From positions 65,304 through 129,303 of the forward strand of contig DJQW01000001.1 in assembly GCA_002437665.1 (NCBI GenBank): 64,000 bases of DNA, read 5' to 3'. This document shows, piece by piece, positions 20,519 to 47,068 of the stretch (positions are counted from its first letter, which is position 1; every line of letters starts with the position of its first letter). The DNA is from Alphaproteobacteria bacterium UBA6376. Its GTDB lineage: Bacteria; Pseudomonadota; Alphaproteobacteria; Rs-D84. The translations under genes were made by a program, and so were the position numbers. The notes under the pieces are model-generated. The model was given only the letters and a program-made list of their open reading frames with translations, ran no database searches and was not told where the DNA came from.

Positions 20519-21166
20519 TCAGAACGTATATCTCAATCCAAAATCAATGCTATATGCCCCCTGCAAATCGGCCTTGGCTGATGCATTCAAACCAATAAAC
20601 GTCAGCATTACATTCCACCCAAACCCATTGATTGATGTTTCACTAACCAGACCTAATTTTAATACGCCCATAGCCCCATCATCAGAAACAGAATCTTCAT
20701 ATGTATAATAATAACTTTTTGCTTTTGCTGTTTCGTGCAACCACGAATGTCCAACACCAACTGAAATTAAAAAATCTGAACGCGGTTCTGAATCACCAGA
20801 CAAACGAATATAATTATCATAAGAAAAATAAAGTGTGGTCAAATCCATTGTTCCTTCAAACGTGGAATTGTCATACCAATCTGAACCATTTACAACATCG
20901 CCCAACGTTGGCATATATGACAATGTTGCCGTAACACCACCATTATAAATATTTTCACGTTCTCCAAAACGCATACCACCAGATACAGACAACGCAACAC
21001 CGCCGCTATCATCTTCAAACGTATCATCATCAATAGAATCATTTATATCATCAGAAAATGTTGGGCCGGCATAGCCAATATTTGCACCCACAAACCATTT
21101 CAAATCCGCCATTGCAGGCATTGTCAGAATTGATAACAATCCTGTTGTTAAAAATAACTTTTTCAT
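20519..21166 (-). CDS. outer-membrane beta-barrel protein (OmpA-like/OmpW-like barrel domain)
   Basis: Signal peptide MKKLFLTTGLLSILTMPAMA. Alternating hydrophobic beta strands. C-terminal ...GLRYTF with terminal Phe. Start refined to MKKLF. Confidence 0.6.
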   Translation of the reverse strand: MKKLFLTTGLLSILTMPAMADLKWFVGANIGYAGPTFSDDINDSIDDDTFEDDSGGVALSVSGGMRFGERENIYNGGVTATLSYMPTLGDVVNGSDWYDNSTFEGTMDLTTLYFSYDNYIRLSGDSEPRSDFLISVGVGHSWLHETAKAKSYYYTYEDSVSDDGAMGVLKLGLVSETSINGFGWNVMLTFIGLNASAKADLQGAYSIDFGLRYTF

Positions 21167-21320
21167 TTCACACCCCGTTCGTGCTTTATTAAATAAAAAC
21201 CACATTGGAATACCAAAGTGGTTGGAGGTTGAATACTATTATTTACGGAATAGTGTCGCTTATTCTGATATATCGCGACCCTCCAACCATCAAATATGAT
21301 TGGAGGTGTTTTTTGTCCCC
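21167..21320 (-). promoter_or_regulatory. structured 5' leader (same architecture as 1732-1875)
   Basis: Minus strand: CCTCCAATCA..TGATGGTTGGAGGGT, a loop of about 47 nt, AACCTCCAACCAC, then CCAC..GTGG plus a U-tract, then GGGGTGTGAA ATG. Confidence 0.45.
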
Positions 21321-24061: not shown

Positions 24062-26572
24062 TCAGTCACGGTTGCGCGCCAAATCATCATAGATATGATA
24101 TTTTTGGTCACCGGTTTCCCTGTACTCATACGGCGCACCACCCGCAGAATACATATTAAATAATTCTGTTGTTTTTTCGACCGCCGCCGCAATCATTTGT
24201 GCCGTGTCGTCCGCGCTGTATTCAATCGGTTTTACCGCCCCACTCTTTAATTGTAAAAACACCATCACAGGCGTGCGTGATTTTTCAGTTGTCGGAATCG
24301 TGAACCCGCCGGATTGCAGTATATACGCCTCTAAGGGTAACTGTGGCATAGTCCCTTCGACCAGTTTATTTTTCGTTGGCGGCGTACCAGTTTTAATATC
24401 TAACACCCCACCGTCCCAAATACGATCCGCGCGTGCGCGAACATTGCGTCCCGCAATATTTACCACACCCGCCGTTTCTGCAACCGATGGTGGCAAAGCA
24501 TTCAAATATTCCAACGCCACCGGCGCGATTTCCAAGAATCGTTTATGCCAGAAATGATATATTATGCTGTCCGCGCCCAGAATATTGCGCGCACGCGCGT
24601 CCATATCGGCAACCAACGCCGCCGCATCTTTATTAGCAAATGATTCTAACGCCGCATGCACCAAATCACCAAACTGGCGCGCATCAGGTGTGGCCCAGTA
24701 ATCATCCAACACGCGCAATTTCAAAATATGATTTACATAAAATGTGTATGGGTTGTGTATCAATTTTTCCAACGCCGTCACATATACATCAGACCAATCG
24801 GCGGGTGGCACGGGCGCGCTGTAATCCAGTGGGCGGGGCGCGACATCATCACGGGCGCGCACCACGCGCAAAATATCCGCGCCCACCGCCGTATCAAACG
24901 CACCACCACGTGCACGCACGCGTGATATAAAACGCGATTCCGCCGTCTGAACACCACCGGACGCGCCACTGCGTGTCCAATACACATCCGCCCCACACGA
25001 CAGATTCATAAAATCCAACGCCTGCAAAGAAACCTTTCTGTCGGCAGATGGCAATCCAATCTGCGTCGCCAAACGTACGGGCAACCATGCGTTCTCAAAA
25101 CCGCGCGCGGGAAACATCCCCTCGTTCAAGCCGGTTAAAATCACAACATCGGCGGTCTGCATACGTGATTCGATTGTCCCCAAAACAACCACGCGCGCCG
25201 CACTGTTCATCGCGCCACGCACCGATACGCCGGAAATCGCATCTGTTAAAAAAGCATACGCATCAGACAATGATAATTTTATATCGGCATCGCGAATACA
25301 ATCAGACATATTCTTTATCGCCGCCCAAATTTGCATTGATGCCGCATCAGATATATCAAACGCCGGTGCAAACATGTCACGATTTTCGTCCACCATGCGC
25401 ACAATCATTTCAAACAAGTTACCGTCCGCCGCCGCATACAACCGTTCAAACGTCGCATTGTCACCCGCATCAATCCAATCTGAAAATACATTCAGAATAC
25501 CGCGACCGGTATTTGTCATTGTACCGGAAATGCCCCCTGAAAAGTCCGCATCAATCCCACACGCACGCAATGCAAATGCCGCACGCTGGTTACCCGCCGC
25601 ATCGGGCGTAATAATTAAAACAGATTTGTTTTCATGCGTCGCGCGCGATGCAATTTCCGCAACAACGGCGGCCTCTTCACTTTCGCGGGCGCATTCAATC
25701 AAATGACAATGACGCACCATCGCACCATCATCTGGGATTTGTGGATTATTGCTGAATGCATAGTTCAAGAAATCAATCGGTGACGCGCCGACATCAATCG
25801 GTTGCACATCTGATTCCGCCAATCCCAATGATGCCAGAAATTTATACTCGGCATTATACGGATGCGTCGCGCGCACTAAATCGCCCTCAGTCCCAGAATA
25901 TTTACCAGACAAAATTATTCGCCCATGTGGCGCACGCGCCACCGCACGCATTAAATCCGCGGTTGCGGGTACACTGGCGGTTGATGCACATACAACAACC
26001 AAATCATAATCGTTCAGATGCGCCGTCCAACCACGTATCGCGGCATTGCGCGCGGCGGTCTGGGTCGGTCGCCCCGCATAGTACGCCGGCAACACACGTG
26101 TGATAATTTCCAGTAATTTCGCCTTGTGCTGAAAATGCGCTGCATATTCGTCGCCGACCAGCGCATTCCAATCAATCGTACTGGCGTCCACCCCTTCGTT
26201 TTCCAGATAGTCCGTCATACGCACCAAATCGCGCGCCACCGGCAATGCCGTTGTAATATTTTTTATACTGGCGTCGGCGGCCAATAATTTTGCCAGCATA
26301 ACGACGCGCGCCATATTTGAAATTGTGTCACACGCAATATCATCATCAACCTCGTCAGGTGCACCTTCGCCCAATGCGACCAGTTCCGGCAAAATCACCG
26401 CCCCACCCGATTTTTCCGCCAGCATTTTTTCCACCGTGCGCACGGCGCGACGGCTGGGCAAAAATATCAACATACGCGATAAATCCACACCCGACGCAGA
26501 TAACACATGCCACAGCGCATCTGACATCTTCGCAGGATTTGTTGCACAAAAGATATTTTTATTTGATTCCAA
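24062..26572 (-). CDS. AddB-like double-strand break repair nuclease (PD-(D/E)XK family)
   Basis: 836 aa. C-terminal RADRIWDGGVLDIKTG...PQLPLEAYIL nuclease motif. N-terminal degenerate helicase-like region. No adjacent addA. Confidence 0.55.
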   Translation of the reverse strand: MESNKNIFCATNPAKMSDALWHVLSASGVDLSRMLIFLPSRRAVRTVEKMLAEKSGGAVILPELVALGEGAPDEVDDDIACDTISNMARVVMLAKLLAADASIKNITTALPVARDLVRMTDYLENEGVDASTIDWNALVGDEYAAHFQHKAKLLEIITRVLPAYYAGRPTQTAARNAAIRGWTAHLNDYDLVVVCASTASVPATADLMRAVARAPHGRIILSGKYSGTEGDLVRATHPYNAEYKFLASLGLAESDVQPIDVGASPIDFLNYAFSNNPQIPDDGAMVRHCHLIECARESEEAAVVAEIASRATHENKSVLIITPDAAGNQRAAFALRACGIDADFSGGISGTMTNTGRGILNVFSDWIDAGDNATFERLYAAADGNLFEMIVRMVDENRDMFAPAFDISDAASMQIWAAIKNMSDCIRDADIKLSLSDAYAFLTDAISGVSVRGAMNSAARVVVLGTIESRMQTADVVILTGLNEGMFPARGFENAWLPVRLATQIGLPSADRKVSLQALDFMNLSCGADVYWTRSGASGGVQTAESRFISRVRARGGAFDTAVGADILRVVRARDDVAPRPLDYSAPVPPADWSDVYVTALEKLIHNPYTFYVNHILKLRVLDDYWATPDARQFGDLVHAALESFANKDAAALVADMDARARNILGADSIIYHFWHKRFLEIAPVALEYLNALPPSVAETAGVVNIAGRNVRARADRIWDGGVLDIKTGTPPTKNKLVEGTMPQLPLEAYILQSGGFTIPTTEKSRTPVMVFLQLKSGAVKPIEYSADDTAQMIAAAVEKTTELFNMYSAGGAPYEYRETGDQKYHIYDDLARNRD

Positions 26573-29556: not shown

Positions 29557-29719
29557 AGTGGTGGGAGTGGCTGATTCCCTCGCCCACACGGGGGCGTGGG
29601 ACTGCGGGGCATTCGTATGTTGTGTTCCGCGGCGCACACACCGCGCCACACAACAACTCATAGTCGAACCGGCAATCAAATGATTGCGTGCTTCCAATTC
29701 AACACCACATATCACCAAA

Positions 29720-29752
29720 ATAAAAACACCCGCGCGTCGGGTGTTTTTATTT
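29720..29752. terminator. bidirectional terminator inside the island's left arm
   Basis: acacccgcgcgtcgggtgt hairpin flanked by A and T runs. Confidence 0.5.
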
Positions 29753-30341
29753 TGGTGGGGCGCACTTTACTCACGATATTCAGACATACAAAATCTCCTA
29801 CCAAGAATTACCCCAGAACAGGGATTATCAGGGAATTTTTATAAAAAACGTCATATAAAGGCCCAACTAATACAACTTATGGTTGTATTACACCCACAAA
29901 AACCAACAAAATTTCCAAAAATTCCCTATACAACAAAACAGGGAATTATTTTCTTAATATCAGGGATATCTTTTGTCATTTTCCTATATTAACAGACCTA
30001 CCTGAACACATAAACTTTAAGGACGCTTTATAAGAAGGGAAGTGAAGCATTTTTCATGGCTGTGCCACGAGTAAACTTTCATTTTCCCTTATATATAGAG
30101 GTCCCTAAAAAATTTTAGGACCGATAAAAAACTTATAAGGAGTGTTTTATGAACAACTTAAACATACAAAACATAGAAATCGCCCGGATACGAGAATACT
30201 AAAACAACCCAAATTCGCATACCTCTAGTTCGCCTAGGATATTTTTACACTAAAAACATCTTTTTTTATTATCTACACAACTCATGCACCTTGGGTTTTA
30301 ATTTCCGCAAAACATTACATCTCATTAAAAATGATACATTT

Positions 30342-33300
30342 TCATTTTAAAGACGCTATAAATCTTTTCAACTTCATTACTTCTTTATCTTTTTCTTCAA
30401 ACCAATTCGTTGACCAGATTCTATAAAACTCAAACCCAAAATGATTTTCTATCCATTTTTGCCTATGCATATCTGCTGCATATGCCTGATCTGTATTATG
30501 ATATGCCTTCCCATCGCACTCTAAAGCTACTTTATGACCGTTTACTTCTAACATAAAATCAAGTCTATACCCACCAACAGGATATTGTAAATGTATGTGT
30601 TTTTTATCTATAAATTTAAGTAATTCATTATATACTTCTTCTTCAAAAACAGATTCAGTAAGTCCCTCCATTGTTGGTTGCGACGAATCTTCAACAATCG
30701 TTGTTGTGCCACTTCTCCGTATATCGTAGCTATACTTACACAATTGACTTAATATATCTTCCACAGTTGCTTTATCACCATCAGAAACGGCTTTTGCATA
30801 TGCAATATAAGCATAAAATATGGCTGCCCTATTATTTTCATGCGACCTGTCTAACAGTTCCTTGTATGTTGAATATGCCTTTTTTGGAATGGACGTTACA
30901 ACATACAGTTTACTTTTTGCTCTTGTTATCAAAACATTTAACAATTTGTATCCATTATCTGTCAATATAGATCCAAAACGTTGATAAAACTTTCCTGATT
31001 CATCTGGCCCAAATGTAGTAGATATTATAATGATATCCTTTTCATCGCCCTGAATATTTTCTAGATTTTTAACAAAAAGCCCCGCTTGTTGCAATTTTTC
31101 AAATCTATCTTTAAAAGCTTCATCTTTATATGATGTTTCATATAACAATGTTTTTATACAATTTCTCTGATGTATATTAAATGTTGCTATTCCAACAGAT
31201 GGCATTGTGCCATCCGAATTCGGTTTTATTTCATTAAGGATAGAAATAACCTCTACTGCTTCTTTTGGATTAATGTTGCTTGCTTTTCCGGAACTATAAA
31301 TACCACTTACTTCTCTTATTTCTATTGGGTTATAATCTTTTCCAACGACTGGCAAAGGACACAAATTACCACCATAAAATGCAGCATTAGAAAAGTTGAT
31401 TAAAGCAGGATGCTTTGAACGATAATGAAAATCTAAATATGACATATTTTTATATTTTAAATTTTCTGCAAATACCAACAAGGATTCTGCATCAAGTTGT
31501 GCATTTACAAGCATATTTCCGTCTGTATTACCACCATTATTCCCGTCTAAACCAGTTTGGAAATAATTAGAAGGCGGCATTTGGTGTTGATCTCCAGCAA
31601 TTATTTTATACTTTCCTCTTATCATTGCCGTATAAACATCTTCTATTCTTAATTGACTGGCTTCGTCAAAAATAACCAAATCAAAAGACCCCTGCTCCAA
31701 TTTAAACAATGTATTAGCTACAATTGGATTTACTAAAATAACAGGGAAAATTGTCGTAAAAGAAGCAAAATCTTTATCAATAATCTGTTTTAGAGATAAC
31801 CTTTTCCCAAATTTTTGATTTTTCTTTAATGCAAATAATGCTTTAAAACCATATTTGTCATCTAACCTTGTCATTGCATTTTGTATTCTTTCGTCCCACA
31901 TACTAAATGTACGCTTCAAATTCTGCTTTTCTAAATCACTATAAATACTCTTTAACAAATTCAAATTCGTGTCGTTTTTATGAAATCTTATCTTTGTTTT
32001 TGATTCAAAATCCAACAACATATAATAATAATATGAAGCAAGAAATGTATTTTCCCAATTATCAACATTGACTGTTTCTAAGATGTCCATCAAGCTTCGA
32101 TTGGCTTTTTCAAACTTTACCCATGTGTTATAATCTTCAATTTTATCCATATTGTCTTTCAAATCAAACAAAGATGACAACACGTTATTAAACATTAATT
32201 TACACTCTTTAATATCAGAAAAATGTTGTAAATCGTCATTAATTAACGGGAACTGTTTAACAATATCGTGCTTTAAAGAATCTATACGATTTTTACAATC
32301 AATTATATTTTTATACTCATTTTTATGCTCCGCAAACGTCAAATTGCATTCAACTAACGCCTTATATGCTCCATCTAAATTTTTATATATTTTGCTTTGC
32401 TGAGACCTTACTTTTTTCTCTAAAATAGACATATCTTTTAATAACGTTTTTAAATCGATGTATTCTTTCCATTTTCCTAATTTGTTATCCAGTTCTTGAT
32501 ATTTGTTATATTGAGAAACATTTGACTGCACAGAAGCCAACAACCGTTTGATGGTTATTAAAATATCATATGCCTCAGAAACATTCTTAGAAAACAATCT
32601 ATTAAATATACCAAATTTCCCTATATCAAAATTCTCTCCCAACAAATCATTACCTTGCTTATATTTTTCCTTTATCAAGGTAATATTGTCTAAAATATTA
32701 CTTAAAAGTTGTGTTTTTTCAACAGCCGTATCATCAAAATCTATTTCAACATCAAGAGATTCTGCCTTTTCATTAAATGCACTAAATAATACATTTAAAG
32801 CTTCTATCTCATTTGGCGTTAATTCATTTTTATATAACTTTTTTATATCCTTATAAATTGGCTCTATTGACTCAAGATACGCTATCTTTTCTTCAATACA
32901 CTCTTTATTAGAAACTATTGATACGTCATTACATTCAAAATTAGATTTTTTCACATATGCATCGAACTCTTCTATAAAAGATATCGAATCGTTTAATTTT
33001 TTCTCTATTTCCTTCTTTTGCTTTATGTTTATCACATCCGCGAAATCATCAAAATCTATATATTTAAAATACGAACTATTCGTATCTTTTATATAGGAAA
33101 ACAGTAATGCTCCCTTTTTGATAATATTTAAATATTCATTTAAAGCATCTTCAGTAAACGTAAACTTAAAGTTTCCAAAATCATTCTTAGTTGATTCAAA
33201 TTCTGGATTTTTAGAAAATCTCAAATACTCACCGACTAAATCTTTCCAATTTTTCCCAGCAAAAATAGGCTTACTAGACTCTTTATACGATGCGTTAACA

Positions 33301-34631
33301 GAATCTCTAAGCTCTATAAATTGGTTATATTTTTGTTCAAAAACCCCTTCATCAAAGCCATACAAATTATGAGAATAACCATCCCCATCATATATTCTAC
33401 GTGCCTTTTCAACAATGCTTTTTCTGTCTTTTACAACATCGTCTATTACTGCACAAAAACAATCTAATTTTTTAGATTCTAAATTTTTTACAAGAACATC
33501 CAATGCTGTTTTCTTCTCGCAAACAACCAATGTCTTTGCGCCATTCGCCAACGCATTTGAAATAATTGCAGAAATAGCCTGAGATTTACCAGTTCCCGGA
33601 GGCCCTTGAATAATTTTGAACTCATCAGAATTTAATGTATCTATTATTTCTCTTTGGCTTGGGTCAACTTCAAAAGAGGTAGTTGTGCTAGTCTGAAATG
33701 GCTCAATAGTCAATTCTTCTGAATTAAATTTATCTACATTTTCTAATAATTCTCTTGTTGCTTCGATTATAGGCTCCTTTTGCGACCTAAACAATCCAAA
33801 CACACCGCTCCACTGAACCCAAGCGGTTCCACTAGTTATTTTTTCTACCTTCTCTTTATTTTCTGGACACTTTTGTAAAGAAATATTAGTTATGTCTTCT
33901 TTGATTCCTAAACCTTTATTAAGGTTATTAACATAAGCTATTATCTCATCTTCAGACAAAACCCCGTCATCCAATTCATCATTTGTTAATTTTGGTAATA
34001 CTACTTTTTCATCATTTTCTATATGCGATACCAATAATTCATTAACTTTGATAGGACTATCTTCCGTTTTTGATATAAACCACTCATTTCTTCTGTTTGA
34101 TTTTTCTATATCCAAAGACCATATAAATATTGGAGCTATGATTATTTTTTTAGGGTCTTTCTTATCCGGCTTTACTAACAGAGGATATCCAAAACCAAAA
34201 TTCTTTAAACCTGTTTCCAGATACATGTCTTCGTTATCTGCGACGATATTGTCTAACTTTCTAGAAACGTCAAACAATTTGCTCTTTTCATCTTCTGACA
34301 TTTTAGTCTGGGATTTTTCATCCCACGATATAGAAAATTTAAATTTCGGTTTTGTCAAAAGGCTTTCCAAAAAACTACCAGCAAGAGTGCTACTTTTGTT
34401 TTCTTCACCAACAGACAAATCAAACAAATCCAATCTTGTATGATTTCTACCAGGTATAGCATTAAGATGGATTGACCTACCATTTCCAACAGTTAACTTA
34501 CTAAGAAGTTTTTCTAAAAAAAACTTGTCAAATTTAATTTGTGATACAATACTCGCGCCTACCTTTTTGACATTTCTCTTTGGTGTATCAACATATTCTC
34601 TATTTGAAGGTTTTAAAAAAGTAAACGCCAT
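30342..34631 (-). CDS. DUF4011-like / Upf1-like SF1 helicase (AAA_11+AAA_12) / C-terminal DUF559 (Vsr-like PD-(D/E)XK) endonuclease fusion protein
   Basis: 1429 aa. Walker A IIQGPPGTGKSQAIS; motif II VIFDEASQL; motif III IIAGDQHQMPP; motifs V and VI QGDEKDIIIIST and LLNVLITRAKSKLYVV. C-terminus GYRLDFMLEVNGHKVALECDGKAYH (DUF559-like). N-terminal LKNFGFGYPLLVKP...IIAPIFIWSLDIEKS resembles DUF4011. Very AT-rich. Confidence 0.85.
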   Translation of the reverse strand: MAFTFLKPSNREYVDTPKRNVKKVGASIVSQIKFDKFFLEKLLSKLTVGNGRSIHLNAIPGRNHTRLDLFDLSVGEENKSSTLAGSFLESLLTKPKFKFSISWDEKSQTKMSEDEKSKLFDVSRKLDNIVADNEDMYLETGLKNFGFGYPLLVKPDKKDPKKIIIAPIFIWSLDIEKSNRRNEWFISKTEDSPIKVNELLVSHIENDEKVVLPKLTNDELDDGVLSEDEIIAYVNNLNKGLGIKEDITNISLQKCPENKEKVEKITSGTAWVQWSGVFGLFRSQKEPIIEATRELLENVDKFNSEELTIEPFQTSTTTSFEVDPSQREIIDTLNSDEFKIIQGPPGTGKSQAISAIISNALANGAKTLVVCEKKTALDVLVKNLESKKLDCFCAVIDDVVKDRKSIVEKARRIYDGDGYSHNLYGFDEGVFEQKYNQFIELRDSVNASYKESSKPIFAGKNWKDLVGEYLRFSKNPEFESTKNDFGNFKFTFTEDALNEYLNIIKKGALLFSYIKDTNSSYFKYIDFDDFADVINIKQKKEIEKKLNDSISFIEEFDAYVKKSNFECNDVSIVSNKECIEEKIAYLESIEPIYKDIKKLYKNELTPNEIEALNVLFSAFNEKAESLDVEIDFDDTAVEKTQLLSNILDNITLIKEKYKQGNDLLGENFDIGKFGIFNRLFSKNVSEAYDILITIKRLLASVQSNVSQYNKYQELDNKLGKWKEYIDLKTLLKDMSILEKKVRSQQSKIYKNLDGAYKALVECNLTFAEHKNEYKNIIDCKNRIDSLKHDIVKQFPLINDDLQHFSDIKECKLMFNNVLSSLFDLKDNMDKIEDYNTWVKFEKANRSLMDILETVNVDNWENTFLASYYYYMLLDFESKTKIRFHKNDTNLNLLKSIYSDLEKQNLKRTFSMWDERIQNAMTRLDDKYGFKALFALKKNQKFGKRLSLKQIIDKDFASFTTIFPVILVNPIVANTLFKLEQGSFDLVIFDEASQLRIEDVYTAMIRGKYKIIAGDQHQMPPSNYFQTGLDGNNGGNTDGNMLVNAQLDAESLLVFAENLKYKNMSYLDFHYRSKHPALINFSNAAFYGGNLCPLPVVGKDYNPIEIREVSGIYSSGKASNINPKEAVEVISILNEIKPNSDGTMPSVGIATFNIHQRNCIKTLLYETSYKDEAFKDRFEKLQQAGLFVKNLENIQGDEKDIIIISTTFGPDESGKFYQRFGSILTDNGYKLLNVLITRAKSKLYVVTSIPKKAYSTYKELLDRSHENNRAAIFYAYIAYAKAVSDGDKATVEDILSQLCKYSYDIRRSGTTTIVEDSSQPTMEGLTESVFEEEVYNELLKFIDKKHIHLQYPVGGYRLDFMLEVNGHKVALECDGKAYHNTDQAYAADMHRQKWIENHFGFEFYRIWSTNWFEEKDKEVMKLKRFIASLK

Positions 34632-34775
34632 TGATGTTTCTCGCTCTATTTTGCGATGTGAATGGTATCATATATACATACAAATCTCAATATTTTTATA
34701 TTATATACCGTCTTTATTAACTTGACTTCTTGCTTCTTTAGAGCGGTAATTGGACGACATTACAAAGGAGTACAT

Positions 34776-35219
34776 ATGTCAAGTTTCACAAAACTGCCGC
34801 AGAGTTTGGTAGAGTTAAAACGCCTGCCATTTGCTGACCGACAGCGATTATGGGCAAAATACTCGCCCCACCCATTTCGCCGGCAAAATACAGCACTGTG
34901 GTATTACATGCAATGCGACCGATTAAAACTGCGAATATTGCCAAAACATATGGTAAAAATTCGCAAATATATGAACAATCCTGACGCTTGTTTAACCCAT
35001 GTTTATCGTAATAAATATAACCTGGGGTCTGGCACGATCATTACCAAAATATTTCGTGGAAAACAACATATCATAACGGTCGGCGACAATAATGTATTCG
35101 CGTATAACGGGAAATCATACCACAGTTTATCCGGCATAGCACGCGAAATTACCGGAATTAAAATATCTGGTCCAGACTTCTTTGGACTAACCCCAGGGAA
35201 TAAAAATGTCAATCAATAA
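34776..35219 (+). CDS. DUF2924 family protein (recombinase-associated)
   Basis: C-terminus LGSGTIITKIFRGKQHIITVGDNNVFAYNGKSYHSLSGIAREITGIKISGPDFFGL matches the DUF2924 hallmark (SLSAIA..ITGT.WNGP.FFGL). aaaggag RBS. Its stop overlaps the recombinase start by 14 nt. Confidence 0.75.
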   Translation: MSSFTKLPQSLVELKRLPFADRQRLWAKYSPHPFRRQNTALWYYMQCDRLKLRILPKHMVKIRKYMNNPDACLTHVYRNKYNLGSGTIITKIFRGKQHIITVGDNNVFAYNGKSYHSLSGIAREITGIKISGPDFFGLTPGNKNVNQ

Positions 35220-36795
35220 GTGCGCGATTTATGTTAGAAAATCCACAGAACACGGGTTAGACATGGAATTTAACTCCCTGCAAAACCAGGAAGAATCATG
35301 CCTGGCATATATCGCGTCACAATCATTTAACGGATGGAAATACTGCAAAACATATACCGATGCGGCGATATCTGGCGGAACCATGGAACGGCCCGCATTA
35401 AAACAAATGCTGGACGATATGGCACACGGTTTAATAAACACGGTTGTTGTGTACAAGGTTGATCGCCTGTCGCGTTCAATTCTGGATTTTCACAACATGA
35501 TGAAATATTTTGAAAAATATGGCGTAAATTTCGTGTCCATCACCCAGTCATTTGATACTTCCAATTCTATGGGGAAATTGACATTAAATATGTTGCTATC
35601 ATTCGCACAATTTGAACGCGAAGTGGCCGGTGAACGCGTACGAGACAAGATACGAGCCAGCAAAGCCAAAGGAATCTGGGTCGGCGGAAATCCACGCCTG
35701 GGATACGATATCATAAATAAAAAATTGGTTGTAAATAAAACTGAAGCAGGCACAGTAAAATTACTGTTTAACAAATACTTGGAACTGCAATCTGTCACCC
35801 TATTAAAGAAATTTGCGAACTCCAATAATATTCACAACAAACAGTGGACAACCAAAACTGGAAAGATCCGTGGCGGTCGACCATTTCAAAATCAAACCTT
35901 GTTAAACCTGTTGCACGATAAAATCTATATTGGAATTATGGAGTGTAAATCAGCAAAAACATCAGCACCAGGCGAACATACCGCCATTATCGCAACGGAA
36001 TTATTTAACCGCGTTCAAGCGGCACTGCGCAACAACACAAATGGCAAGATTGGGAATTCACACAACGCCCCCAACCTGCTGACCGGAAAATTATTTAATG
36101 ATGATGGCATAAAATTCACAAACCAACAGACGCGACAACAGAATAAACAAACCAAATATTATTATGCAATCCCTGGTTTATATATTCAGTCATCCCCAGT
36201 GGACGAAATTGTTATAAATATCATTGATGAATTTATGAATGCCAATCTGGAACGAATCCACAGCGATTTTGGCAACGCATTAAAACACATAGATTTTTCA
36301 AATTTACCATTTCCGACCAAGCGCGATTTTATCAGACGAATCTTACAAAAAGTCATTTATTCCGAAAACAGGCTGACGCTGTTTATTGACCAAAATGCAG
36401 ATATAAAGGAATTCATAAACACAGAATTTACAAACGAAAATCAAAACAAAATGGATTACGTCATTGGCGACAAAAGTATAATAGTAAGACGCGAATTCAT
36501 CATGCAACGATATAACAAACGAAATGATTATAACGCTGGGAAATCCGCCGCAATCAGCATAAGCGATAACAATCATCTGGTTGTGCGGGCATTTGCACGC
36601 GCATTTAAATATCGCAAAATGTATGAAGAATGCGGTGATTATAAATCAATCGCCAAAATGGAAAACACATCAGAAAGCAGTGTTTATCGTCACCTGAAAC
36701 TGGCCTATATGCACCCGGACACCGTCAATGCAATTATGTCCGGCACCATGCAATGCAGTGTGGATAAGTTATTCAATATTCAAAACAATCTATAA
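35206..36795 (+). CDS. large serine recombinase (resolvase/invertase N-terminal domain + recombinase domain)
   Basis: AIYVRKSTEHG... catalytic Ser context, ...VYKVDRLSRS..., FEREVAGERVRDK. 529 aa, a length typical of large serine recombinases. Confidence 0.9.
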   Translation: MSINKCAIYVRKSTEHGLDMEFNSLQNQEESCLAYIASQSFNGWKYCKTYTDAAISGGTMERPALKQMLDDMAHGLINTVVVYKVDRLSRSILDFHNMMKYFEKYGVNFVSITQSFDTSNSMGKLTLNMLLSFAQFEREVAGERVRDKIRASKAKGIWVGGNPRLGYDIINKKLVVNKTEAGTVKLLFNKYLELQSVTLLKKFANSNNIHNKQWTTKTGKIRGGRPFQNQTLLNLLHDKIYIGIMECKSAKTSAPGEHTAIIATELFNRVQAALRNNTNGKIGNSHNAPNLLTGKLFNDDGIKFTNQQTRQQNKQTKYYYAIPGLYIQSSPVDEIVINIIDEFMNANLERIHSDFGNALKHIDFSNLPFPTKRDFIRRILQKVIYSENRLTLFIDQNADIKEFINTEFTNENQNKMDYVIGDKSIIVRREFIMQRYNKRNDYNAGKSAAISISDNNHLVVRAFARAFKYRKMYEECGDYKSIAKMENTSESSVYRHLKLAYMHPDTVNAIMSGTMQCSVDKLFNIQNNL

Positions 36796-36906
36796 CAGAA
36801 TCTCCAGTTCCCGAAATGCCGATTGTATGTATATCGGTATTTTTGGGCTATTTCGCCATACATACAAAATATGTGCAGGCCGCACAATCGCCCAAATTCG
36901 GGCAAT

Positions 36907-36938
36907 AAAAACACCGACCACAACGGGTCGGTATTTTC
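36907..36938. terminator. terminator after the recombinase gene, abutting the tRNA-Tyr 3' end
   Basis: accgaccacaacgggtcggt hairpin plus atttt. Confidence 0.55.
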
Positions 36939-37025
36939 TGGTGGGAGTGGCTGGATTCGAACCAGCTCAGGCTTAAGCCAACAGATTTACAGTCTGCCCC
37001 GGCTCTCCAACTCCGGCGCACGCCC
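36939..37025 (-). tRNA. tRNA-Tyr (GTA), 87 nt with long variable arm; slightly non-canonical
   Basis: Minus-strand read: GGGCGTG-CG-CCGG-AGTTGGAGAG-CCGG-G-GCAGA-CTGTAAA-TCTGT-TGGCTTAAGCCTGA-GCTGG-TTCGAAT-CCAGC-CACTCCC-A-CCA. Anticodon GTA. One C:U mismatch in the acceptor stem and no U8. Confidence 0.6.
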
Positions 37026-46412: not shown

Positions 46413-46811
46413 TTATTTTATAACCAGTTTGCGACCCGCCCCATTTTCGCTCAGGTGCACATGGATTGTATCCGCCGGCAAAATGTTCGCCGCAATGTCC
46501 GGCCATTCAATCAATGTAATATCGTTCGCAATAGCATACGGCAAACCAATTTCCACCAATTCCGACGCATCGTTTATACGATACAGGTCAAAATGCGATA
46601 TTCCATCATAGTTCTGGACAATGGTAAATGTCGGACTGGGTACGACGGTGTCCGCCCCGCGCAATGTCTGGATTATAGTACGTGCAATCTCGCTCTTGCC
46701 CATACCCAAATCGCCATGCAATGCCACACATACCGGCGCATGCAAGGTTTTCGCAAAATCCCGCGCCCACGCCCGCGTTTCTTCAACACTGTTCAACAAA
46801 TATTCTTTCAT
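46413..46811 (-). CDS. tsaE: tRNA threonylcarbamoyladenosine biosynthesis protein TsaE
   Basis: VCVALHGDLGMGKSEIARTII P-loop. Confidence 0.85.
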   Translation of the reverse strand: MKEYLLNSVEETRAWARDFAKTLHAPVCVALHGDLGMGKSEIARTIIQTLRGADTVVPSPTFTIVQNYDGISHFDLYRINDASELVEIGLPYAIANDITLIEWPDIAANILPADTIHVHLSENGAGRKLVIK

Positions 46812-47068
46812 CGCTGATTTTCACCCCCTATTACATGAACCAGTGGTTTATATTCTGGCACTTTATATGTTTCGGTTTTTCCCGCCAAATAATCCAACAT
46901 TTGATGTGCACCCGCACGCGTTCTGTATGGACTGCGCACACGATACATCATTCCTTTTACACGAACAATATAATCTGCTGCATACCAATCACGCCATAAT
47001 TGCGAAATATATAATCCGTTTATTTGAACTACTTGCGCCCTATTTATTTTATTTGCTGTTTTTGTCAT
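46808..47068 (-). CDS. hypothetical small protein
   Basis: 86-aa ORF overlapping the tsaE start by 4 nt. Confidence 0.35.
   Translation of the reverse strand: MTKTANKINRAQVVQINGLYISQLWRDWYAADYIVRVKGMMYRVRSPYRTRAGAHQMLDYLAGKTETYKVPEYKPLVHVIGGENQR

Follow-up and report, generated by a model that had tools for sequence, protein, structure and literature searches.

What a single, very long gene of deviant composition does as the only cargo of a small integrated island is the question raised by a 64-kb stretch of DNA (64,000 nucleotides, nt; hereafter the window) of Alphaproteobacteria bacterium UBA6376, positions 65,304 to 129,303 of contig DJQW01000001.1. The flanking proteins identify the host as an uncultured alphaproteobacterium. 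An earlier note on this DNA had singled out the gene at positions 30342..34631 (minus strand) as a candidate defence gene encoding a helicase and a nuclease in one polypeptide. Our analysis indicates that its product of 1429 amino acids (aa) is probably a nucleic-acid-targeting defence enzyme of the Hhe/ProA (PDC-S37) superfamily, consisting of a single polypeptide and acquired horizontally as a 4.5-kb cassette of low G+C content in the cargo slot of an element that is integrated at tRNA-Tyr and mobilised by a serine recombinase.

The open reading frame (ORF), taken from the ORF list and its translation, begins with ATG and comprises 1429 codons plus a stop codon with no internal stops; a 4.3-kb open frame in DNA of 30% G+C cannot be a product of chance. 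Both the frame and the motifs quoted in the earlier note were recovered as it had given them. Motif I (Walker A), GPPGTGKS, occupies residues 343-350, motif II, DEASQ, residues 989-993, motif III, GDQHQMPP, residues 1013-1020, motif V, QGDEKDIIIIST, residues 1194-1205, and motif VI, VLITRAKSKL, residues 1233-1242. The N-terminal peptides GFGYPLL and IIAPIFIWSLDI lie at residues 146-152 and 164-175, and the C-terminal peptide GYRLDFMLEVNGHKVALECDGKAYH (GYRLDF...ECDGKAYH) at residues 1354-1378. Motifs I and II, said to be about 600 aa apart, are separated by 639 aa.

In the Pfam profile search with gathering cut-offs, four families exceeded their thresholds in the 1429-aa protein. Two of them, AAA_11 (53.7 bits) and AAA_12 (62.2 bits), each with a cut-off of 27 bits, bore out the proposed Upf1-like superfamily 1 (SF1) helicase. 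The first part of helicase domain 1A (residues 321-430; 33342..33671, minus strand) carries the Walker A motif and matches AAA_11, AAA_30 and AAA_19, and the remaining core (residues 936-1250; 30882..31826, minus strand) carries motifs II, III, V and VI and matches AAA_12. Between motifs I and II lies an insert of approximately 505 aa (residues 431-935; 31827..33341, minus strand), which is poorly conserved in the alignment of homologs and contains only 3% proline plus glycine. The helicase motifs were invariant across the 44 homologs aligned for residue conservation. The closest solved sequences in the PDB sequence search were SEN1, IGHMBP2 and ZNFX1, and the NCBIfam model TIGR00376 (IGHMBP2 family) matched the helicase core with 85 bits. 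Judged from its sequence, with motifs I, II, III, V and VI all present, the core is a Upf1-like helicase of the SF1B type.

The C-terminal domain (residues 1329-1429; 30345..30647, minus strand) is of the Vsr/DUF559 type. It was matched by MTES_1575 with 75.4 bits (cut-off 38.2; residues 1329-1425, profile positions 1-96 of 96), whereas DUF559 itself (PF04480) found no match in the protein in the Pfam search; the Vsr-like assignment of the earlier note held through this sister family and the alignment with 3hrl described below, but not through the DUF559 model that it had named. Structures were predicted only for residues 1-330 and 1250-1429. The AlphaFold2 model of the C-terminal 180 residues reached a mean confidence (pLDDT) of 84.7, and its best Foldseek match was the Vsr-like homing endonuclease I-Bth0305I (3r3p, E 3e-4), the second being the DUF559 protein NGO0050 (3hrl, E 8e-4). 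Residues D1358, E1371, D1373 and H1378 line up with the D/E/D/H residues of 3hrl, are invariant or at least 90% conserved in the 44 homologs and are putatively catalytic. The predicted structure and the conserved D/E/D/H set support a Vsr-like nuclease, so that the predicted fold and the putative catalytic residues for which the earlier note had looked to structure prediction were found. All ATPase motifs and nuclease D/E/D/H residues are intact. MTES_1575 was first described as a 'novel Vsr-REase' and DUF3320 as overlapping a winged helix-turn-helix (PMC3710099). No DUF3320 tail was matched in the Pfam search at E ≤ 0.1, and the protein stops 4 residues past the nuclease domain.

The N-terminal domain (residues 1-320; 33672..34631, minus strand) is DUF4011-like. 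The Pfam match passed the cut-off (26.8 against 22.2 bits), in agreement with the earlier note, but was weak and partial, covering profile positions 59-155 of 158. The fold search with the predicted model of this domain returned no solved structural match, and phmmer with residues 1-320 retrieved only 318 clusters (50% identity), which come mostly from Bacteroidota, Patescibacteria and their mobile elements. We regard this domain as a candidate sensor or regulatory domain.

Searches with defence models placed the protein near two known systems. Its best match in the defence library was PADLOC PDC-S37 (445 bits, E 1.6e-133), and PADLOC Hhe (PDLC02194) was matched with 233.6 bits (E 7e-70). Among the NCBIfam models, NF058533 ('anti-phage protein ProA') gave 429 bits (E 4e-128) with a curated cut-off of 1500, and NF042953 (Hhe) gave 284.4 bits (E 2e-84) in three stretches with a cut-off of 2000; the best of these stretches covered residues 539-1249. 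The scores were calibrated with two distant relatives from the genome scan, one of Atlantibacter (L058, 1854 aa) and one of Pseudomonas moorei (L060, 1587 aa). The former scored 1901 bits on PDC-S37 and 1642 bits on ProA, the latter 2042 and 1466 bits. Because both score highly on both models, PDC-S37 and ProA are essentially one family. In Pfam, L058 and L060 show DUF4011 (140-148 bits), MTES_1575 (133 bits) and DUF3320 (50-52 bits). Positions 1341-1550 of the PDC-S37 profile are unmatched by the 1429-aa protein. BLASTP aligned the latter to L060 at 33% identity over 506 aa, spanning the second helicase half and the nuclease, and at 31% around motif I; between the two N-termini it gave no alignment. 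The model scores point to a homolog with the Hhe/ProA domain order that lies outside both curated families. Since the scores fall below the cut-offs, DUF3320 is lacking and the N-terminal domain is rare and has no solved structural match, the protein would belong to a separate, compact clade of the Hhe/ProA superfamily, a known kind and no new class.

The genomic setting of the gene was analyzed next to its protein. The island spans approximately positions 29574-36938, about 7.4 kb. Its left boundary is formed by the direct repeat TGGTGGGAGTGGCTG (29559..29573, plus strand), a second, detached copy of the tRNA-Tyr 3' end; the tRNA-Tyr (GTA) gene itself, found by ARAGORN and the Rfam tRNA model, lies at 36939..37025 on the minus strand. 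The right copy of the 15-nt repeat coincides with the 3' end of this gene (36939-36953), which identifies tRNA-Tyr as the integration target. The repeat occurs exactly twice in the 64-kb window, with 0 copies expected in shuffles. No empty, island-free tRNA-Tyr site was found among the conspecific contigs, so the att crossover was deduced from the 15-nt repeat alone. A large serine recombinase of 529 aa (35206..36795, plus strand; Pfam Resolvase 136 bits, Recombinase 41.5 bits), similar to CcrB and XisF but below the NCBIfam cut-offs of both, is presumed to be the integrase of the element. Upstream of it lies a DUF2924 gene (34776..35219, plus strand; 147 aa from the ATG at 34776; Pfam 62.6 bits; also called as a gene in L001 and L020), divergent from the helicase gene, constant in the element and 97% identical in strains with other cargo. 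G+C content rises from 0.305 in the cassette to about 0.40 in the recombinase module and reaches 0.46-0.47 in the flanks outside the island. With its recombinase, direct repeats at a tRNA gene and deviant composition, the island is an integrative mobile element.

The helicase-nuclease gene is indeed the sole cargo gene of this small island, as the earlier note had it, and is accompanied by a common non-coding arm and a short gene remnant. The left arm (29574..30149) is 97-99.7% identical in conspecific strains with other cargo; blastn showed it to be common with L011 up to 30221 and with L022 up to 29993. Positions 30150..30221 (plus strand) hold 72 nt of a ParB_N/N6_N4 methylase gene, namely its first 24 codons, now carrying an in-frame stop. 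The replacement cassette of 4.5 kb (30222..34710, minus strand) consists of the gene, 120 bp downstream and about 79 bp upstream of it. An Rfam scan of the island returned only two tRNAs, promoter-like sites were no more numerous there than in shuffles, and terminator-like sites exceeded shuffles at most marginally (8 vs 4.4 +/- 2.2). Within the left arm, a perfect 20-nt hairpin, CACCAAAATAAAAACACCCG / CGGGTGTTTTTATTTTGGTG (29713-29757), is followed by TGGTGGGGCGCAC (to 29765), which resembles the 3' end of another tRNA; the two could be left over from an earlier integration or could represent a tandem element. The segment 29574-29760 is G+C-rich, unlike the remainder of the island.

Comparison with other strains showed what else the slot can hold. 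Conspecific contigs, picked by identical flanking proteins (LppC-like and Caps_synth), keep the recombinase/DUF2924 module (97% identical) and the left arm, and differ in the interior. Type A is the arrangement of the window, to which type A' adds one gene of 336 aa beside the tRNA. In type B the interior encodes two type II methyltransferases together with an HNH restriction enzyme and a KAP NTPase. The same restriction-modification (R-M) genes recur in type C, where they are joined by two small genes and by genes for a DUF7380 protein, a terminase large subunit, DUF5681 and an intact ParB-methylase, in an element of about 17 kb or more. PADLOC matched the alternative cargos to MTase_II, REase_II (237 bits), PDC-S20 (153 bits; the KAP NTPase), PDC-S39 (200 bits; the DUF7380 protein) and PD-T4-7 (70 bits; the optional extra gene). 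The cassette breakpoints at 30222 and 34710, obtained from the comparison with L011, L022 and L023, are precise to about ten bases or better. The 24 codons of the ParB-methylase that remain, as seen base by base against L011, show that a type-C-like element had its interior replaced by the cassette.

The cassette is found outside this species as well. Segment 30325-34702 recurs with 87% nucleotide identity in an unrelated element (L007), where it adjoins another serine recombinase and VirB4, PLD and methylase genes. In L008/L009 the cassette (82% nucleotide identity) is found with DUF2924 and the recombinase, and its neighbours are different: HSDR_N_2, Macro, ADP-ribosylglycohydrolases, a terminase and a ParB-methylase. 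The slot is strain-variable and holds recognised defence modules in sister strains, i.e., it behaves as a defence hotspot. With R-M and PADLOC-candidate genes in this position in conspecific strains, the island context strongly supports the role that the earlier note had proposed for the protein.

The same comparison bears on the possibility that the gene serves the mobile element, either in competition between elements or as an addiction module that degrades rival plasmids, prophages or satellites or kills cells losing the island. Mobile-element genes accompany the gene in every case in the close clade, 505 plasmid records (211 of them conjugative) contain distant superfamily members, and Hhe is toxic once triggered, according to a preprint (bioRxiv 10.1101/2024.10.10.617714). 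However, the backbone (recombinase, DUF2924 and both arms) persists with entirely different cargo, which shows the gene to be unnecessary for maintenance; the alternative cargos are classical anti-phage modules, and the cassette contains no cognate antitoxin-like partner gene. We consider a primarily element-serving role unlikely, and it would overlap with defence rather than exclude it. A further candidate, the element's own replication or transfer helicase, was rejected, as the backbone persists without the gene and the cassette is combined with a different recombinase in L007.

Several other features of these elements were noted. A 336-aa PD-T4-7-like gene (70 bits) lies between the recombinase gene and tRNA-Tyr in L021 (11444-12454) and L003 (6787-7797). 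At the corresponding site the window has only 135 bp (36774-36907), and its recombinase measures 529 aa vs 526 aa there; this gap appears to be a second, smaller variable slot of the element. The trio of ParB_N/N6_N4-methylase, DUF5681 and large terminase was observed beside serine-recombinase elements in two settings (L011 12198-15246; L008 19408-22538), and its recurrence suggests that the backbone is a reduced prophage or phage satellite. Beside the 86% identical homolog, L008 14910-17975 encodes HSDR_N_2, two ADP-ribosylglycohydrolases, a Macro domain protein and DUF2130, a cluster that may be another defence or counter-defence module.

The distribution of relatives was considered together with selection on the gene. 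Only two homologs are close, P0001 (90% identical) and P0002 (86%), the next nearest being at most 62% identical. Nearest full-length relatives in the one-genome-per-species collections share 38-45% identity and belong to Bacteroidota and Patescibacteria. As no relative above 45% identity turned up in the contig scan of species-representative genomes, the donor can be placed only approximately, in a low-G+C lineage, Bacteroidota or Patescibacteria-like, and this affinity agrees with a cassette of 30% G+C. A single distant match came from the phage collection, hence the gene is not a typical cargo of sequenced phages. Among the more distant homologs, P0014 (52% identical) is located among type III R-M, HipBA and GmrSD genes, and P0012 adjoins integrase fragments, BstA_C and VirB3/4.

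These data also speak to the idea of a cellular enzyme of DNA repair or RNA surveillance, comparable to Upf1, IGHMBP2, SEN1 or DNA2, that merely happens to be located on an island. Such a role would agree with SEN1 and IGHMBP2 being nearest to the helicase core among solved structures and with the existence of repair enzymes among Vsr-type nucleases, and the housekeeping settings of some distant relatives, detailed below, point in the same direction. In the species studied, however, the gene is present in a subset of strains only (clusters at 90% contain 284 members for the flanking LppC protein and 2 for the helicase), other strains carry R-M and defence genes in its place, its G+C content is 16 points under that of the host, and its nearest relatives are found in other phyla, Bacteroidota and Patescibacteria. 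A cellular housekeeping function is, in our judgement, very improbable.

That the gene is a passenger in decay or an artefact of annotation, and has no function today, could be suspected from the truncated remnant at 30150-30221 and from the likeness of the island to a reduced prophage-like element. Against the 90% and 86% identical homologs, dN/dS (the ratio of nonsynonymous to synonymous substitution rates) was 0.07-0.10 overall with dS of about 0.7; by region it was 0.008-0.04 in the nuclease, 0.02-0.09 in the helicase parts, 0.05-0.09 in the N-terminal domain and 0.11-0.14 in the insert. Every part of the protein is thus held by purifying selection, which is strong overall. The ORF is uninterrupted, the catalytic motifs are invariant across the homologs, and an identical 1429-aa protein is encoded on at least 20 independent metagenomic contigs. 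Motif conservation and dN/dS effectively refute decay, to which we assign next to no chance.

Altogether, these results favour a defence enzyme, and a working model can be proposed by analogy. The N-terminal domain and the insert might keep the enzyme inactive (autoinhibited) until it meets a trigger, which could be a protein-DNA complex or an intermediate of phage replication or recombination. The helicase would then load on single-stranded nucleic acid and translocate 5'->3' with ATP, and the Vsr-like nuclease would nick or degrade the invading DNA, possibly also that of the host, with an abortive outcome. As the protein lacks the DUF3320 winged-helix tail of Hhe/ProA, recruitment to the target would have to rely on the N-terminal domain or the insert. 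Nhi, Hna and Hachiman are reported to be activated by phage single-stranded DNA-binding protein (SSB)/replication complexes or DNA damage and then to degrade DNA (PMC10732053; PMC12278908).

A number of observations weigh against the defence assignment and have to be set beside it. Upf1-like helicases often act on RNA. Both curated NCBIfam cut-offs are missed, and on PDC-S37 the protein scores 445 bits, about one fifth of what true members reach (1900-2040 bits). Neither a structural nor a functional precedent was found for the N-terminal domain, and the case for a defence role of the compact clade is built on homology and context. One preprint raises NAD+/adenine depletion as a possible component of Hhe defence, in which a helicase and nuclease are not the obvious cause (bioRxiv 10.1101/2024.10.10.617714). 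The earlier note held that orthologs residing consistently in housekeeping contexts would speak against defence; such contexts were found for the Patescibacteria relatives P0062 and P0026, of about 41% identity, not for the closer clade. In addition, the core genes of Pseudomonas aeruginosa include one with DUF4011 (PMC10250203). In view of these two findings the superfamily is not exclusively defensive. We nevertheless hold the reading as a horizontally acquired Hhe/ProA-type defence enzyme to be the likely one.

A bolder version of this reading would place the compact clade next to Hhe and ProA as a third branch with a mechanism of its own, in which the private N-terminal domain senses a different trigger or substrate and gates the Vsr nuclease allosterically through the helicase insert. 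One possible target would be RNA or R-loop/replication intermediates instead of duplex DNA ends. We put this forward tentatively and would grant it a modest chance at best.

Three further observations concern other parts of the window. Between uvrB and tsaE, positions 46808-47068 (minus strand) contain an ORF of 86 aa with no family match; at this site other conspecific strains (L021-L023, 1000-1383) have a stand-alone 127-aa DUF559 (Vsr-like) gene, and the uvrB-tsaE site is a second strain polymorphism involving a Vsr-type nuclease. A 228-aa gene at 20519-21205 (minus strand; G+C 0.41), with a weak, sub-threshold match to an outer membrane protein beta-barrel, lies between mnmE and an AMP-binding gene, being present in window-type strains and absent in those of the L011/L015/L016 type. 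A PD-(D/E)XK (AddB-like) gene at 24062-26572 (minus strand) was called either as 836 aa (TTG start, overlapping a GTPase gene) or as 821 aa; as the calls differ between contigs, its start is ambiguous.

The locus offers a clean natural case of cargo replacement in a serine-recombinase element with three or four alternative cargos, all of them defence modules, and supports metagenome comparisons of the 'same slot, different cargo' type for nominating defence genes. The literature searched does not resolve the biochemical mechanism of the Hhe/ProA type, and a shorter natural variant with no winged-helix tail and a distinct N-terminal domain could be a minimal model for separating sensing from effector functions. 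Current views are not overturned by these data; to a specialist, defence cargo of this sort will come as no surprise.

Defence hotspots inside mobile elements have been described before, among them the P2/P4 prophage hotspots and hotspot 5 of the SXT integrative and conjugative element. The island studied here shares with the Pseudomonas core defence hotspot cDHS1 (cDHS concept, PMC10250203) a constant backbone and constant ends around interchangeable defence cargo. It differs from cDHS1 and the other hotspots in being a tRNA-Tyr element with a large serine recombinase and DUF2924 in an uncultured alphaproteobacterium.

At the protein level, the earlier note had turned to Nhi for comparison and professed not to know whether this architecture had been put to experiment. 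It has been, as Hhe, and ProA is curated as anti-phage in NCBIfam; these two, not Nhi, are the closest known relatives in the model searches. The Nhi nuclease is located N-terminal to its helicase. Nhi of Staphylococcus likewise unites nuclease and helicase activities in one protein, which we treat as a functional analogy and not as a family assignment. No Nhi model appeared among the PADLOC matches at E ≤ 0.1, the presence of such a model in the library being unconfirmed. Nhi was proposed to be switched on by phage replication complexes including SSB and then to degrade phage DNA (PMC10732053). SEN1, IGHMBP2 and ZNFX1, the nearest solved structures by sequence, share the helicase motifs, but the likeness is confined to the ATPase core; they are RNA or DNA-RNA helicases of housekeeping pathways and have neither a Vsr nuclease nor a DUF4011-like N-terminus.

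Hhe is reportedly a defence system of Gao et al. 2020. It is a one-gene helicase and Vsr-endonuclease defence protein annotated as DUF4011-containing, and the protein studied here likewise combines helicase and Vsr-type nuclease in one gene. It differs in that the match is mostly confined to the C-terminal half of the helicase and that the Hhe models are about 1800-1900 positions long vs 1429 aa here. Preprints report that Hhe of E. coli is active against lambda, T3, T7 and PhiV-1, the nuclease (Vsr domain) mutation E1731A abolishing this activity (bioRxiv 10.1101/2022.06.16.496414), and that a phage trigger gene sickens Hhe-carrying cells, with T7 DNA-metabolism genes acting as triggers (bioRxiv 10.1101/2024.10.10.617714).

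Finally, for ProA/PDC-S37, of which no primary publication was found in the literature searched, the correspondence extends to the whole order of domains in a single polypeptide, i.e., DUF4011, AAA_11, a long insert like that at residues 431-935, AAA_12 and the MTES_1575 Vsr nuclease. True members have a full-length DUF4011 and the DUF3320 tail, whereas the 1429-aa protein has a partial DUF4011, lacks the tail and is 160-425 aa shorter. These comparisons suggest that the gene is probably a fairly ordinary defence gene, a distant and shortened relative of Hhe and ProA.

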